UHGV virus genome: UHGV-0006788
Strand: one strand, 5' to 3'
From: a virus
DNA length: 35,015 nucleotides
In this document: piece by piece, positions 7,237 to 12,398 of the stretch
Layout of the letters: every line of letters begins with the position of its first letter
Numbering within the stretch: position 1 is the first letter of the stretch
Made by a program: the position numbers and the translations under genes
The notes under the pieces: model-generated
The model's input: only the letters and a program-made list of their open reading frames with translations
What the model was told of the DNA's origin: nothing
Databases searched by the model: none

Positions 7237-8427
7237 TTAATTGCTGTTAACCGAGGTGACCAGATTTGCCAGGTATTTATCGGTAATACGCTGGCGCAGG
7301 GTCAGGTTTTCGAGAGGAGGCACCGGTGTATAGTCGTAGTCGATATACAGTTTTCCGGCCTTGAGGGTTTCCGCATCGTTGGATTCTTCGCTGAACCAGC
7401 AGGTCGCATCCACGATATAGCCGTTTGTTTTCAGCTCACGGAATTTGGCATTGATGCCGTCAACGATGTCGCGAATCAGCGTTGCGGTGATGGGCTTGTC
7501 CACCGCCCACATGTGCGCCTCAGCCATCGTGTCGGCCAGCACCTGCGCGGTGCGTGTGTAGTTTTCAAAGAGAAACAGCGGGTCATCAGAGCAGGTACGG
7601 TTACCCCAGAAGCGGAAACCGTCGCGGCGAATCAGCGTAGTGACGCCTGACTCGTTAAGCAGGTCAGCATCGGTGCCGGACTCCTGCAAATCCCAGAATA
7701 CAGAGGCGCTGATGCCGGTAACACCGTTCACCCCGACGTTGGACAGCGTTTTATGCCAGCCCTGCTCCTGGTCGATTTTAGCGCGCAGACCCAGCGCACG
7801 GGCGGTGGCATACGCGGTGGCAGTGGTACTGGTGACCGTATCCCATGCGAGGAAATCCGGCCAGATGACCATCAGCTCACGCTGGCTGAAATTCTGGCGG
7901 TAGGCTTTCACCTCGGAAATGGTCTTACAGCCCCATGTGCTGATATATCCGAAAGCGCGCAGCTTCTGACAGACGGATGCCAGTGCAACAGCCACCTCTT
8001 TGGTATCCAGCCCCGGCACACCAAGAATACGCGGTTTAACACCGGTTACCGACTCCGCCGCCAGCAGGGCTTTCAGTCCGGTGTACTGACCGTTTTCGTC
8101 GGTGGTTCCGATGATATTGGAAACAGTCTGCGCGAGTTTCGTTTCTTCGTCTTCGCCGGTGCCGTCTTCCACACGCACGACAACGGTGACCGGTTTTGAC
8201 TGGTCGGCGATGGCCTGCAACGATGCCGCCAGCGTGCCTTTTTTACCGGCCTTTGCAATTGCGCTCTGCACATTGGTAATCAGCACCGGTTTATTGAGGG
8301 GGAAGGTTTCCGCATCCGCATCGCTGGCCGTGCAGACCATGCCGACAATGGCAGTGGATACGGTGGAAATGACGCGGGTGCCGTCGTTAATCTCCAGCAC
8401 CTGCACGCCGTGATGATAGTCACTCAT
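7237..8427 (-). CDS. FI: Contractile tail sheath protein (P2 gpFI family)
   Basis: 396-aa ORF, the same length as P2 gpFI; first gene of the FI-FII-E-T-U-D operon. Confidence 0.9.
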   Translation of the reverse strand: MSDYHHGVQVLEINDGTRVISTVSTAIVGMVCTASDADAETFPLNKPVLITNVQSAIAKAGKKGTLAASLQAIADQSKPVTVVVRVEDGTGEDEETKLAQTVSNIIGTTDENGQYTGLKALLAAESVTGVKPRILGVPGLDTKEVAVALASVCQKLRAFGYISTWGCKTISEVKAYRQNFSQRELMVIWPDFLAWDTVTSTTATAYATARALGLRAKIDQEQGWHKTLSNVGVNGVTGISASVFWDLQESGTDADLLNESGVTTLIRRDGFRFWGNRTCSDDPLFLFENYTRTAQVLADTMAEAHMWAVDKPITATLIRDIVDGINAKFRELKTNGYIVDATCWFSEESNDAETLKAGKLYIDYDYTPVPPLENLTLRQRITDKYLANLVTSVNSN

Positions 8428-8520
8428 CCGTTTAACTCCGTGGTTAATGGGTGCAACTATTTTCTGTTGGGCAGAGCATGAGACGCTATTTGACCTGGCT
8501 GGTCAGTGGATGAAACAACA

Positions 8521-8551
8521 GATAAAGAAAAGGCGGGCAATTCGCCCGCCT
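8521..8551 (-). terminator. Putative intrinsic terminator insulating the FI operon from the upstream cargo island
   Basis: Stem ggcgggc / gcccgcc (8532..8538 and 8544..8550) with a short loop; on the minus strand the hairpin is followed by a U-rich tract (reverse complement of gataaagaaa). Confidence 0.4.
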
Positions 8552-8850
8552 GTCCTGATTTGTACTCACTCATTTTCCGCCTGACAATTTACATAGCCCA
8601 AATGCTATCAAATCTGACAGTCTGCTTTGAGCGAGAAACGGACGTTATAGATAGTGTGTTAAGGTTTTCTCTTTAATTGCAATGTCATATCCTCAACGAC
8701 CAAGTAGTGACATTTTTCGTTATTATATGGTATTGTGTTAGAATTAATTTATTGATGCGAAATCATTCAAAGCTTCATTGGTACTTATATTTAACTTATA
8801 ATCTTAATTAAAGAATTTCTTATTTTTAGATATTTTTATGCAAATACTTA

Positions 8851-9603
8851 ATGAAAGGAGGCATAAATTTGGATACTAACAGTCCATTAATTGAAGTCGA
8901 GCAGAACACTTCAGACATATATATTCCGTTGCAAGCCTGGTTCGAGGGGAGAAAATTCCTTTCACACAGATTTTCGGGCCAAAACTGTAGTGATAATCCA
9001 TCAAGTGATTGGGAGGCTTGGTTATCAATACAGGAATGCTGTCCTCTCCATCAGGTCAATAGTCTTAACTGGGTCGGACTGCATGAAGCTAGGAAAAATA
9101 CAGATTCATTCTTGGGGAATGTGAAGAGTGAATTTAATGGAAAGCTTCCCATTTTTATTCATGAAAAGGAGAGGGTGATAATCGAAAAAAAAATCGGCAT
9201 TCCTCCCAAACCCTCATTACCAATCTATTTAATATCATGCTCTGATATGGATGATACCAATGAACACATTGTTTATGTCGGAAAAACCGTTAACTCCAAA
9301 AGGTTTATTGGCGGTCACTCGGCTGCCTTAAAGTTGCTAGATCCCAAATATAATAATATGAAAAAGAGGATATATAGAGCCACCCCATGGTTTTATGATG
9401 GAAAAGACTATATTTCACTGGATTGGATTAGTCCGACATCATTAGCTATAGAATTACTTGACTTTATAGAGTCTCATCTTATTTACAATCTCAAGCCGGA
9501 ACTCAACACATCGAAGAAAAAAAATGAAGATACACGTTATTCTTTTTATCTTCACATTCAGAACTTTTTATCAACAGGCTTTCTTAATGATGAGTTTATT
9601 TAA
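8851..9603 (+). CDS. Cargo protein with a putative GIY-YIG-type nuclease domain
   Basis: 250-aa ORF in a visibly AT-rich island. The segment PIYLISCSDMDDTNEHIVYVGKTVNSKRFIGGH has the GIY...YIG spacing and the following Arg/His seen in GIY-YIG nucleases such as I-TevI and UvrC. The AAAGGAGG Shine-Dalgarno sits inside the annotated first codons, so the true start may be the in-frame TTG at 8869. Confidence 0.6.
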   Translation: MKGGINLDTNSPLIEVEQNTSDIYIPLQAWFEGRKFLSHRFSGQNCSDNPSSDWEAWLSIQECCPLHQVNSLNWVGLHEARKNTDSFLGNVKSEFNGKLPIFIHEKERVIIEKKIGIPPKPSLPIYLISCSDMDDTNEHIVYVGKTVNSKRFIGGHSAALKLLDPKYNNMKKRIYRATPWFYDGKDYISLDWISPTSLAIELLDFIESHLIYNLKPELNTSKKKNEDTRYSFYLHIQNFLSTGFLNDEFI

Positions 9604-9639
9604 TATCATTACTTATTAACATAGTAGAGATTAAACTAC

Positions 9640-9704
9640 GTCCGCTCCTGGCAAGCAGCGGACATTGCTGGCTGAGTTGAGGGTCCGCTGTGAGCGAGGA
9701 GCGG
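9640..9704. repeat. Pair of palindromic hairpin elements with arms GTCCGCT / AGCGGAC
   Basis: gtccgct-cctggcaagc-agcggac (9640..9663) and tccgct-gtgagcgagg-agcgga (9684..9704), between the two convergent cargo genes. A related palindrome occurs at 11786..11809. Confidence 0.5.
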
Positions 9705-9978
9705 AAGTTCAAAATTTTTCATAACGACTGATGAGAACAACACTAATTTTCGAACTTACTGGTACAAAAAATTTCCATAATCTTATAAAAAGTGGGGGAG
9801 TCAGTATGGTTCAATATTTGAAATACTACTTGTTTATGTTGAGAAAATTTTAAGCTTGACCTGGTTACCAGATTACAGCCGATCAACACCTAGACATCGA
9901 AACTTAGAGGTACCTCTGCTTTCAGGCATACTTAGAGGTCTATGTCTAAACCACCCGCTATGCAGGTGGTTGATTTAC

Positions 9979-11514
9979 CTAATTCGGCCTTGCTTGAATA
10001 GCAGACTCTATAGCTGCTCGGAATTCCGGGGCATCAGTTCTTAATCGATAATCATCAAGGGTATTGAATATTTCTAGAAGTTCTCTACGATAATGCGGCG
10101 GTGCTGAATTACCTTCGCCTCTAGTGGTGAAAATTAATAATGAGTCAGCGACGTCTTTTAATTTTTTATTCCTTTTCAACCTAATATAACAAGATACAAC
10201 TATATCAAGAATATGCTTTCTAGATTTCAAGGTGAGTTTATTATTAGGCATAACCAACTGCAGCATAGCACCAAGTAATTTGGTAGCCTCTTTTGAAATA
10301 TAATGAAGATCGAAATTATCTATTTCTTTATTTTCTTGAGGAATCTCCTTTTCATCTATCCATTCGCATTGTTCTGCCCAATCTGTAGCGACGCTAAATA
10401 AATGACAGAGAAGGAAGTGAAAAGGTGTTTCCCATTCACCACTATATTCATCTGATTGCCTATTCATATTCTTTATAATTTTCCTTGCGAAATATGAATA
10501 GTAATGCAACCATAAATGATCCTGAAGACCCTGGTGAATACCTTCATGAACCATAATTTCAAACAGCGTGACACCTGAGTAAATAGGACATTTATATTTT
10601 GAAGCATCGTAATAGGAACCTAAAGACTTATTAAGTGCAGCAATAATTTTTTCATCTTCATCTAACCTCCAGTAGAGATAGTCACCGATATCACGGTATA
10701 TTGCTAAATCAGCTGCAAACTTAGCATTGGAAAAGAAAAAATGTAATATACGGTTGTTTTTTGGAATCAATAAACGATGTCCTCGACTAACGTTAAGATT
10801 ATTTTTAAGCTCAACATATAGACGACTGTTAGGTGAACCAAGTAATGCACTGATAAAATTAGAAGTAAAGTCAGAACGAACTATTGGCTCGATCTTGATT
10901 AACTCAAGGCAGAGGGATGGGTGCGCAAGTGCAAAGTGATTGGTAAGTTCAGGTGATGAGACAATATTTAACAATGCTTCATGTGCATGTTCAGCAGCTG
11001 TCTCGCGATTAGAGATGCGGAGATTGTTAGCTATCTTATCACAAAGTCGATTCTTCACAGGTCTATCAATTATTGATATTAATTTTTCTAGTTGAGGTGC
11101 CAACAATTGTGCCAGATCGTCGTATCGTTTAGTAAGGTGCAAATTTTCCACTAACTCTAGAAATATCCCTGTTCTTCCAATTGAGAGTTTAGGGTTTTTT
11201 AAGCGAAATAAAATGTAAATAGCAACTGCGAGTGATATCAGGTATACGGCACTTGAACTATCTAATCCCCATTTCCAGGGGCCAAAGCTAAAATATAAGT
11301 CTAGTGATTTTAAAGCCGGTGCAAACACCAAATAATTGCTTAGTAAGAATGCAAACCCAACAATTACCCAATCCCACCACGCTAGGCAGAACCTTAAACG
11401 TAGTCGAGCGTTTGGCGTAATAAGGGCCCATACAGCAGCAATAACGCCCAATATGGTAAGTAGACTTGATGTATCAATTTTGGTTGGCGGTGTCATAATT
11501 TCTCTTGTAATCAT
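9979..11514 (-). CDS. Cargo protein, membrane-anchored (hydrophobic N-terminal segments), function unknown
   Basis: 511-aa ORF in the AT-rich island; the first ~110 residues hold several hydrophobic stretches (LLTILGVIAAVWALI, WDWVIVGFAFLLSNYLVFAPAL, AVYLISLAVAIYILF), followed by a ~400-aa soluble region with no motif I recognise. Confidence 0.65.
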   Translation of the reverse strand: MITREIMTPPTKIDTSSLLTILGVIAAVWALITPNARLRLRFCLAWWDWVIVGFAFLLSNYLVFAPALKSLDLYFSFGPWKWGLDSSSAVYLISLAVAIYILFRLKNPKLSIGRTGIFLELVENLHLTKRYDDLAQLLAPQLEKLISIIDRPVKNRLCDKIANNLRISNRETAAEHAHEALLNIVSSPELTNHFALAHPSLCLELIKIEPIVRSDFTSNFISALLGSPNSRLYVELKNNLNVSRGHRLLIPKNNRILHFFFSNAKFAADLAIYRDIGDYLYWRLDEDEKIIAALNKSLGSYYDASKYKCPIYSGVTLFEIMVHEGIHQGLQDHLWLHYYSYFARKIIKNMNRQSDEYSGEWETPFHFLLCHLFSVATDWAEQCEWIDEKEIPQENKEIDNFDLHYISKEATKLLGAMLQLVMPNNKLTLKSRKHILDIVVSCYIRLKRNKKLKDVADSLLIFTTRGEGNSAPPHYRRELLEIFNTLDDYRLRTDAPEFRAAIESAIQARPN

Positions 11515-11785
11515 TGTTTGATGTACATCGGAATGGTTTCAAATGATAAGGCTCTGTGTATGATAAATCAGAACGTTATGCACGTTTAAGAATACCCTCA
11601 AAATGGCACATTTTAATCTAAAAATGGCATTAAATGGACACTACTTGTCCACACAAGTTTTTTTCAGTCGGCTTTTCCCGACTAACGTTTGGGGTGTCCT
11701 ATTGAAACTACGCTCCTTATAAAAGCAATACTGTAGCTGTATGTTTATCAAAGGGGTTGTGCTAACCAAATTACTGAAGCCTAAG

Positions 11786-11809
11786 GTCCGCTCTTGGCAC
11801 AGAGCGGAC
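11786..11809. repeat. Palindromic hairpin related to the 9640..9704 elements
   Basis: gtccgctct-tggcac-agagcggac, a 9-bp perfect stem; the loop-proximal ggcacagag can alternatively pair with ctctgtgcc at 11827..11835. Lies between the cargo island and the stop of G. Confidence 0.5.
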
Positions 11810-11870
11810 TGTCAGATCAGGCTTTACTCTGTGCCATAGATATGTAAGCTCACACCAGAGCTCATACAAC

Positions 11871-12398
11871 TTATTGTGGCATTTTCGGCCATTCGGGATT
11901 TGCAGGATCCACACGGCTGACCAGAACACTGTAGCGTTCCCATGCTTCCAGTCGGCTATGCTCCTCATCTGTTGCCATGTTCAGCCTGACAGCGCGCTCC
12001 AGTGGCTGAATAACGCTTTCCGCTTCGGAAAGTAACGCGGCCTTTTGTGATTCTGTCTGTTGTTGCTGTTCGTCTGCCGTATAAATCCGCTTAATCACGG
12101 CACCATCCTTAAACATCCATTTACCTGAGTCATCAGCACGTCGGTTGGCGGTAATATCAGGAACCTCGACAACGCTAAAACCTTCAGGGTTAAGCGTTGA
12201 AGCATCTCTGGTGATGCCGACAATTATATTATTCTCGTCGTAAACAATCTTTATCGTGTCTTCCTGAAAATTACTTACTTCCTCATACCAGTTTTTTCCG
12301 TCTTCGGACCATAACCAGATAACATCAAAATTTTTTGTCAGTTGATATTGAGCAACAGTTTTTGGATTACCCGCAGTAATATTTTTTAAATGCTGCAT
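11871..12398 (-). CDS. G: Tail fiber assembly chaperone (P2 gpG family)
   Basis: 175-aa ORF, the same length as P2 gpG, immediately downstream of the tail fiber gene H. Confidence 0.85.

Follow-up and report, generated by a model that had tools for sequence, protein, structure and literature searches.

Dimorphic palindromic sites at the cargo boundaries of a P2-like prophage as candidate sites of cassette exchange

P2-like prophages are major carriers of anti-phage defense genes, and the turnover of their cargo outpaces the divergence of their core genes. The virus genome UHGV-0006788 raises the question of what marks the boundaries at which such cargo is replaced. The stretch analyzed here, called the window, comprises 35,015 nucleotides (nt) and represents a P2-like prophage in which 3.4 kb of cargo lies between genes FI (7237-8427, minus strand) and G (11871-12398, minus strand). 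An earlier note, made from the sequence alone, had described a family of palindromes with the arms GTCCGCT and AGCGGAC around a cargo gene of 511 amino acids (aa) and had suggested that they might mark the boundaries used for swapping cargo, or be repetitive extragenic palindromic (REP)-like elements, protein-binding elements, or RNA processing sites. The comparison of related loci presented below favors, at a probability of about 0.6, that the palindromes are the arms of short duplex recombination sites which delimit exchangeable cassettes in the G-FI (Z/fun) region, and that a recombinase exchanges these cassettes by paired crossovers between sites of like class.

Site anatomy, polarity, and the switch of homology

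Approximately 350 loci were collected by scanning IMG/VR and a single genome per GTDB species for exact patterns, from annotated Escherichia coli regions, and from GenBank records, and a 29-nt oriented site model was built on them; the minimal site spans 25 to 29 bp. It begins with 2 flank bases, which are followed in order by the outer arm GTCYGCT, N, T, the core G-W-G-C-S-A, RR, the inner arm AGCRGAM, and usually GTT or ATT. In the 257 distinct sites obtained, the 6-bp core was near-invariant, asymmetric, and the most conserved stretch of the element, which does not agree with a free loop, as the hairpin description of the earlier note would imply. The core was dimorphic at two linked positions, reading GAGCGA in 129 sites (class B) and GTGCCA in 121 (class A), with 7 other sites. 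The arms were identical in the two classes.

Four sites scored at least 8 bits against the model over the whole window (1-35015), all of them in the G-FI locus (Table 1). The pattern TCCGCT-N4-14-AGCGGA occurred three times, compared with 0.03 expected from shuffled sequences (0/100 shuffles reached three), while the bare 7-mer arm was not significantly enriched (7 observed, 4.07 expected). The palindromes reported at 9640-9663 (GTCCGCT-cctggcaagc-AGCGGAC) and 11786-11809 (GTCCGCTCT-tggcac-AGAGCGGAC, a 9-bp stem) were recovered as described, and so was the alternative pairing at the latter, with 10/10 bases complementary between 11795-11804 (TGGCACAGAG) and 11827-11836 (CTCTGTGCCA). The palindrome at 9683-9706 (GTCCGCT-gtgagcgagg-AGCGGAa) was correctly placed, but only 6/7 of its arm bases pair. 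The 511-aa gene is indeed bracketed by palindromes, but not alone: a fourth, degenerate copy at 8620-8643 (GTCTGCT-ttgagcgaga-AACGGAC) had been missed, and with it both cargo genes are bracketed. The order in the window is B(8618), cassette 1, A(9637), a 19-nt linker, B(9681), cassette 2, A(11783), and the first two palindromes of the earlier note are the junction between two cassettes. The segment at 11827-11836 looks like a degenerate second A-type half-site pointing outward, and the flank that holds it (cacagagtaaagcctaatctga) was kept in P2-like genomes with 36 different inserts.

Table 1. Sites, cassettes, and cargo genes of the G-FI locus in the window; cores are set in square brackets, and sequences are given on the strand indicated.
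Feature	Position	Strand	Details
B-type site, FI/pF side	8618-8646	+	CA-GTCTGCT-T-T[GAGCGA]GA-AACGGAC-GTT; core 8629-8634; 23.9 bits
Cassette 1	8647-9636	+	Holds the 250-aa open reading frame (ORF); protein without assigned function
250-aa ORF	8851-9603	+	Cargo of cassette 1; program ORF list
A-type site closing cassette 1 (first palindrome of the earlier note)	9637-9665	-	AT-GTCCGCT-G-C[TTGCCA]GG-AGCGGAC-GTA; core 9649-9654, a variant of GTGCCA; 21.2 bits
Linker between back-to-back sites	9664-9682		19 nt; with both sites forms the ~72-nt composite junction 9638-9709
B-type site opening cassette 2 (second palindrome)	9681-9709	+	GG-GTCCGCT-G-T[GAGCGA]GG-AGCGGAA-GTT; core 9692-9697; 30.4 bits
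Cassette 2	9710-11782	-	Holds the 511-aa ORF; protein without assigned function
511-aa ORF	9979-11514	-	Cargo of cassette 2; program ORF list
A-type site, G side (third palindrome)	11783-11811	-	CA-GTCCGCT-C-T[GTGCCA]AG-AGCGGAC-CTT; core 11795-11800; pattern scan, site model
Backbone copy of CTCTGTGCCA	11827-11836		Alternative pairing partner of 11795-11804

The sites were found to follow a strict polarity, facing each other across cargo and standing back to back between cargos. Among 98 distinct facing pairs, that is, cassettes, 92 were A+B, one was A+A, and none was B+B; 36/38 back-to-back junctions were A|B. In the P2 backbone, class B was without exception on the FI side (27 cargos) and class A on the G side (36 cargos). 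Because the arms are the same in both classes, this polarity is not fixed by arm homology alone. Cassettes had a median length of 1.6 kb. At P2-like G-FI loci, two detectable sites, and hence one cassette, were present in 26/40, and three or four sites in 5. The window holds a two-cassette version of a known, barely characterized kind.

The position at which homology switches was located by comparing backbones and cargos separately. In P2-like genomes with 27 FI-side and 36 G-side inserts, backbone homology always ended within the sites, and on both sides variation started directly after the core: the FI side read CAGTCTGCT-TTGAGCGA in 24/27 cargo groups, and nearly all of the 36 G-side groups read CAGTCCGCT-CTGTGCCA. 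For 1206 pairs with the same backbone and different cargo, mismatch was at most 9% through the last core base (15% at the two outermost flank bases) and 54 to 55% at the two positions after the core. Conversely, in 30 pairs with the same cargo and different backbones, mismatch was 60% and 23% at the two bases preceding the core and 0 to 7% from the core inward, except for 13% at one position. Seventeen cargos were present in two or three backbones; in these, the inner arm and the two bases before it were kept, and the outer arm followed the backbone. The step remained when two large P2 groups were left out, as well as when every site used as a search seed was left out. Other E. coli P2-like prophages matched the window only up to 8635-8653. 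As judged from these comparisons, the outer arm (GTCYGCTNT) belongs to the backbone and the inner arm (RRAGCRGAM) moves with the cargo.

The first suggestion of the earlier note, that the repeats mark the boundaries at which P2-like phages swap cargo, is thus supported at base-pair resolution, the switch between backbone and cargo homology falling in the 6-bp core. Alignment with other P2-like prophages likewise placed the palindromes at the breaks of synteny, with sites present at the cargo boundaries of relatives. A crossover would fall only in the central region (positions 10 to 17 of the site), as in the core-type sites of tyrosine recombinases, and the layout of the 257 sites, with inverted arms flanking an asymmetric center of 6 to 8 bp, is also the one that such core-type sites require. 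A 6-bp crossover between inverted arms is a hallmark of conservative site-specific recombination, and such geometry is typical of tyrosine recombinases. The switch at the 6-bp core thus bears the signature of a site-specific exchange of cassettes. Partner sites shared approximately 7 to 16 bp of uninterrupted identity, mostly the 7-bp core, and ordinary homologous recombination is unfit because this shared identity is far too short.

Known inverted repeats and spread of the sites

GenBank records and a 2022 review (PMC8987985) attribute the inverted repeats of the P2 Z/fun region to Nilsson, Karlsson and Haggard-Ljungquist (Mol Biol Evol 2004). BLAST searches against phage records returned GenBank entries AJ512683, AJ512676, and AJ512682, with a 91-bp "right inverted repeat" by the FI promoter and a 113-bp "left" one by G. 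The right repeat corresponds to window 8553-8643 (labeled in AJ512683, an unlabeled repeat_region at the same coordinates in AJ512676) and the left one to window ~11786-11898; direct reading of one collected locus (L001) gave the same correspondence, its positions 156-246 and 1874-1986 agreeing with window 8553-8643 and 11786-11898. The locus is the same and the sequence homologous, with the window sites 8618-8646 and 11783-11811 forming the inner ends of these repeats. Both are located in the interval from the FI promoter region to the end of G and flank a variable insert, and the window flanks were 94 to 96% identical to P2-EC58, P2-EC30, P2-EC53, and Wphi.

PMC8987985 credits Nilsson et al. 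2004 with the idea that these inverted repeats, which flank the cargo both in phages and in bacterial genomes, enable site-specific exchange. The main interpretation of the earlier note is, accordingly, an already published hypothesis for this locus, and the concept is known. The Z-region records and the review give no 25- to 29-bp minimal site, core classes, 6-bp crossover, A-linker-B junctions, or tandem cassettes, nor an occurrence in lambdoid or other phage backbones, integrase-bearing islands, or other genera. What is added here is the two core classes with a crossover placed at base level, the tandem cassettes, the spread to lambdoid phages, islands, and other genera, and the absence from P4. 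The site sequences did not occur in the literature searched, which did not include Nilsson 2004 and Odegrip 2006.

The exchange is not restricted to P2-like phages. At least 24 E. coli chromosomes contained segments that matched cassette 2 (window 9682-11816) at 99.0 to 99.3% identity, and the two of these loci that were inspected (L005 and L006) both lay outside P2 prophages, in islands with dnd genes, inovirus Gp2-type genes, IS66, and dynamin, RdcB, and patatin genes. Identity to cassette 2 began there in site 9681-9709 and stopped in site 11783-11811, with other outer arms beyond, so that the same repeats surround homologous cargo outside P2. Cassette 1 was present in 6/5426 complete E. 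coli genomes, always in the same arrangement as in the window. Further backbones were found in lambdoid phages (between the replication and nin regions), in a tail-fiber/invertase region, in islands with P4-type integrases, and in islands with dynamin, RdcB, and patatin genes. The Enterobacterales genera with sites include Erwinia, Serratia, Pantoea, Klebsiella, Citrobacter, Kosakonia, and Rahnella.

Several of these loci merit separate mention. In E. coli CUVET21-1780, downstream of ychF, an island is made up of a P4-type integrase gene and, after it, an array of cassettes bounded by A and B sites (L226), and an insertion sequence (IS) element of the IS1182 family lies exactly inside a B-type core (32688-32716/34448-34476), the interrupted site reading ...GTCCGCTTTGAGCG, then the IS, then AGCGAGGAACGGAAGTT. 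In a lambdoid backbone (L151, 940-1032), A and B face each other across 35 nt that match the start of a longer cargo in another locus (L131); this near-empty cassette is a deletion derivative rather than a true empty site. A metagenome-assembled genome (MAG) labeled as a Bacillota bacterium contained the end of the E. coli 511-aa cassette together with an outer flank of the L005 type, base for base (L267, 2239-2262), and it is almost certain that this contig is enterobacterial and was misbinned.

Within E. coli, an A site was detected in 3830/5426 genomes and a B site in 2627/5426, in 1 to 6 places each. The composite junction was matched in 619 genomes at ~78 to 80% identity, always intergenic, in 1 to 4 places per genome when matches of any length were counted. 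No site was found in the P4 genome at any threshold, the P4 genes sid, delta, and psu were in no site-bearing locus, and the e14 element of E. coli K-12 (pinE-mcrA) held no site. According to PMC13586616 (September 2026), P2 and P4 never exchange defenses, and P2 does so with cryptic islands; the absence of the sites from P4 fits this reported exchange of P2 with islands and not with P4. The same paper states that the recombination processes at P2 hotspots are still to be elucidated, and it makes no mention of boundary repeats, palindromes, hairpins, or motifs.

The exact A-type 24-mer was also present in soil Xanthobacteraceae, Hyphomicrobiales, Nitrosomonadaceae, Acidobacteriota, and other MAGs, Alpha- and Betaproteobacteria among them. 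Soil composites comprised two to three hairpins with the arms GTCCGCT/AGCGGAC and other loop classes (TTACCCCCAAA, TTGGGTCATT). In five loci from MAGs of soil Alphaproteobacteria and Acidobacteriota (L232, L242, L265, L268, and L305), hairpin composites with a period of ~45 nt recurred every 0.3 to 5 kb. The soil composites beside ordinary chromosomal genes may be relatives of the enterobacterial sites that resemble REPs or bacterial interspersed mosaic elements (BIMEs).

A proposed exchange route and its competitors

The geometry of the sites, with 9-bp arms and a 6-bp overlap, would best fit a tyrosine recombinase. In the proposed route, a sequence-specific recombinase acting in trans would exchange strands inside the core. 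Each B site would recombine with a B site, and each A site with an A site, of a second DNA molecule (phage, island, or plasmid), and one or several cassettes would thereby be replaced as a block, linker included, with no excised intermediate. The two core classes would secure polarity and prevent inversion. A x B recombination cannot release a cassette as a circle because the A and B cores are mutually inverted and differ at 2/6 positions, and on the same grounds the classical integration of a circular cassette was ruled out. Replacement by B x B plus A x A would explain the A+B rule, the fixed class on each P2 side, and the transfer of cassettes as blocks with their linker.

Engineered heterospecific lox/FRT sites offer a close parallel. 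They too have inverted arms around an asymmetric overlap of 6 to 8 bp, with two variants that differ at two overlap positions and flank the cargo in inverted orientation, and block replacement without excision is the expected outcome; that arrangement is a design, of which the present sites would be a natural counterpart. A second likeness concerns the shufflon of plasmid R64, whose sfx sites have a 7-bp core GTGCCAA (PMC4176322), identical to the A-type core plus one base (11794-11800, minus strand), and whose recombinase Rci belongs to the tyrosine recombinases and likewise uses asymmetric sites. However, the sfx right arm TCCGGTACGTGG (TCCGGTNNNTGG) is absent here, no rci-like gene is adjacent in the window, and shufflons invert segments within one gene. 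The identity of the core with sfx may be a coincidence and serves as a lead only.

For the G-FI hotspot, the proposal amounts to a concrete and testable answer, namely a 25- to 29-bp socket with a 6-bp crossover and two incompatible classes that fix polarity, present in exactly the partners that exchange and absent from P4. If it were confirmed, the enzyme could be hunted, the ends of cassettes could be assigned to the base in thousands of genomes, and the site pair could serve as a natural cassette-replacement tool. A wider reading, offered tentatively and at somewhat less than even odds, is that the sites represent a widespread, natural, recombinase-mediated cassette exchange not linked to an integrase. 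P2-like and lambdoid phages, integrase-bearing islands, and chromosomes would all offer sockets with common arms and at least two mutually incompatible core classes. Defense and metabolic cassettes would be moved among these sockets by an enzyme that acts in trans and is possibly encoded by the host, and relatives with further core classes would exist in soil Alpha- and Betaproteobacteria and Acidobacteriota; this would explain why the tail-gene hotspot of P2 trades cargo with cryptic islands but never with P4.

Several points weigh against recombinase-driven exchange. The evidence is comparative throughout, and the collection of loci by exact patterns inflates apparent conservation, which was only partly controlled. 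No recurrent recombinase family appeared in the Pfam summary of 145 cassette proteins, the top 25 families of which contained no integrase, and no recurrent recombinase in or beside the cassettes was obtained from a serine-recombinase motif scan, from BLAST clustering of all ORFs, or from tblastn searches with three island integrases. P2 itself encodes its own integrase only. In four island-type loci, P4-type integrase genes did end 47 to 250 nt from a site; they are of the kind usual for islands, mark another kind of backbone, and are not candidate enzymes. An empty site (outer arm-core-outer arm) was not found in any of the 5426 E. coli genomes with a synthetic query joining the FI flank to the G flank, and the presence of the 24-mer beside ordinary chromosomal genes in soil phyla is not obviously predicted by a dedicated cassette exchange. 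Two loci considered as empty sites (H118 and H120) were rejected, both being occupied. At the high-GC soil loci, a Phage_integrase domain was found in only 2/148 neighboring ORFs.

A different possibility, judged unlikely, is that the ~72-nt A-linker-B junction acts as a folded single-stranded DNA (ssDNA) site resembling attC or an HUH hairpin, extruded during P2 rolling-circle replication, conjugation, or transformation and cut in or near the mismatched core. Folding of the junction is consistent with this: as ssDNA, 9632-9714 preferred one long A:B hairpin of -23 kcal/mol (z, -5.35; the other strand, -20.4 kcal/mol, z ~-5.3), and its unpaired positions were exactly the two dimorphic core positions, recalling the extrahelical bases by which integron attC sites are characterized. 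The junction was moreover conserved as a unit, part of the linker included. At P2 backbones, however, the B and A halves are 1 to 6 kb apart and cannot pair, the breakpoints fall in both cores rather than at one fixed junction point and not at GTT, and the same linker occurred with different cargo on both sides (cluster 66).

The general likeness to integrons is considerable, with arrays of short, mostly single-gene cassettes carrying diverse and often defense-related cargo, separated by ~70-nt imperfect palindromes that consist of two inverted "simple sites" and fold into hairpins with conserved mismatches. In contrast to integrons, the array in the window has FI and G as its neighbors and neither an integrase nor attI next to it, no gene of the IntI or HUH type was linked to the sites, RYYYAAC/GTTRRRY boxes are lacking (the bases after GTT are not RRRY), and the breaks lie in GAGCGA at one cassette end and in GTGCCA at the other, not at one common G|TT. 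Nor do the cassettes share the common orientation and the usual lack of promoters of integron cassettes: genes lay in either orientation relative to the B-to-A direction (27 versus 26), and the DNA upstream of the ORF had a median length of 217 nt. Finally, sequence and not just structure is conserved.

In the collected sites, the two arms vary as binding sites would and not as paired stems. At the variable arm pair 5/22, the combinations C-G (131), T-G (63), C-A (27), and T-A (10) matched the expectation for independence, no arm-pair covariation was found in the position table of the 257 sites, and site 8618-8646 folded no better than its shuffles (z, 0.2). Because the arm pairs do not covary and this site does not fold, the functional unit is probably something other than the hairpin itself. 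The elements look like two-armed duplex binding sites rather than selected hairpins, and the protein-binding role that the earlier note had listed is compatible with them and likely.

It is also improbable that no dedicated enzyme is involved and that insulator or stem-loop sequences travel with morons, recombining through short homology (RecA, phage recombinases) or template switching. Palindromes are known as replication stalling and template-switch points, and no recombinase was found in or beside the cassettes; PMC13586616 lists homologous and illegitimate recombination as candidates. Against this stand the breakpoints, which fall within ~6 bp although the arms are equally conserved, the finding that A is never exchanged for B despite identical arms, and the short shared uninterrupted identity. 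The sites also show no features of terminators. As the earlier note had observed, they lack U-tracts: no T-run follows any element, so that the G+C-rich stem with a direct T-run of an intrinsic terminator is not present. A terminator scan of 8400-11950 returned only 8531-8551, 8536-8550, and 9955-9969, none of them a site, and a proper backbone terminator already exists at 8531-8551. No evidence was obtained for the earlier suggestion of an RNA processing site or terminator, the window region and six related loci giving no Rfam match.

The remaining alternative, a REP/BIME-like, regulatory, or RNA element that accumulates in accessory intergenic DNA with no part in exchange, is very improbable: it would account for the clustered palindromes of alternating orientation, for elements that may abound near ordinary genes in soil bacterial genomes, and for IS1182 inside one site, as IS elements do in REPs, but it leaves the coincidence of breakpoints and the A+B rule unexplained and finds neither an Rfam match nor covariation. 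REP/BIME elements and REPINs are similarly short extragenic palindromes paired in opposite orientation across a short spacer, conserved within lineages and targeted by IS elements. The present sites differ from them in lacking a GTAG/GTGG head and in being tied to accessory cassette boundaries, and instead of the hundreds of dispersed host copies of REPs, E. coli had the sites in low copy, in 1 to 6 detectable places per genome, all unannotated and all in accessory DNA, so that copy number excludes a purely REP-like or regulatory element in E. coli and the dispersal through the host envisaged as an alternative was not borne out.

Cargo genes and minor features of the locus

The cargo of the cassettes was very diverse, with GNAT acetyltransferases, AbiEii-like and SMC-like ATPases, dehydrogenases, and regulators among the 145 cassette proteins classified with Pfam. 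In the window, the 250-aa ORF had been described as GIY-YIG-like, which could not be confirmed, as it had no Pfam match (E ≤ 0.01) and no PADLOC match; the 511-aa ORF likewise had no match in Pfam at E ≤ 0.01 or in PADLOC. A transposon or IS as the source of the repeats was rejected: the flanks are inverted rather than direct (ATCTGACA before site 8618-8646, TGTCAGAT after 11783-11811), and the cargo has no transposase domain.

The hairpin at 8531-8551 (minus strand) resembles an intrinsic terminator (AGGCGGGCGAATTGCCCGCCT, then TTTCTTTATC) and is placed in conserved backbone, with the B site at 8618-8646 on one side and the FI promoter region on the other. Leftward transcription out of the cargo region probably has its real stop here. 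The second P2 cargo hotspot (replication gene A to portal gene Q), if present in the window, uses no such sites.

In the P2-like prophage of E. coli S1-ZIM-01-A (L350, 1490-1545), the cargo inside the G-side A site resembles the P2 FI-side flank (aaattaacatatctcaatgttatcaat compared with caatttacatagcccaaatgctatcaaat), which hints at an old rearrangement between the two ends of the locus. Within cassette 2 of the window, a direct repeat at 11597-11629 (CTCAAAATGGCA/CTAAAAATGGCA, 21-nt spacing) is located ~100 nt upstream of the 511-aa ORF and could serve the cassette as part of a promoter or as an operator.

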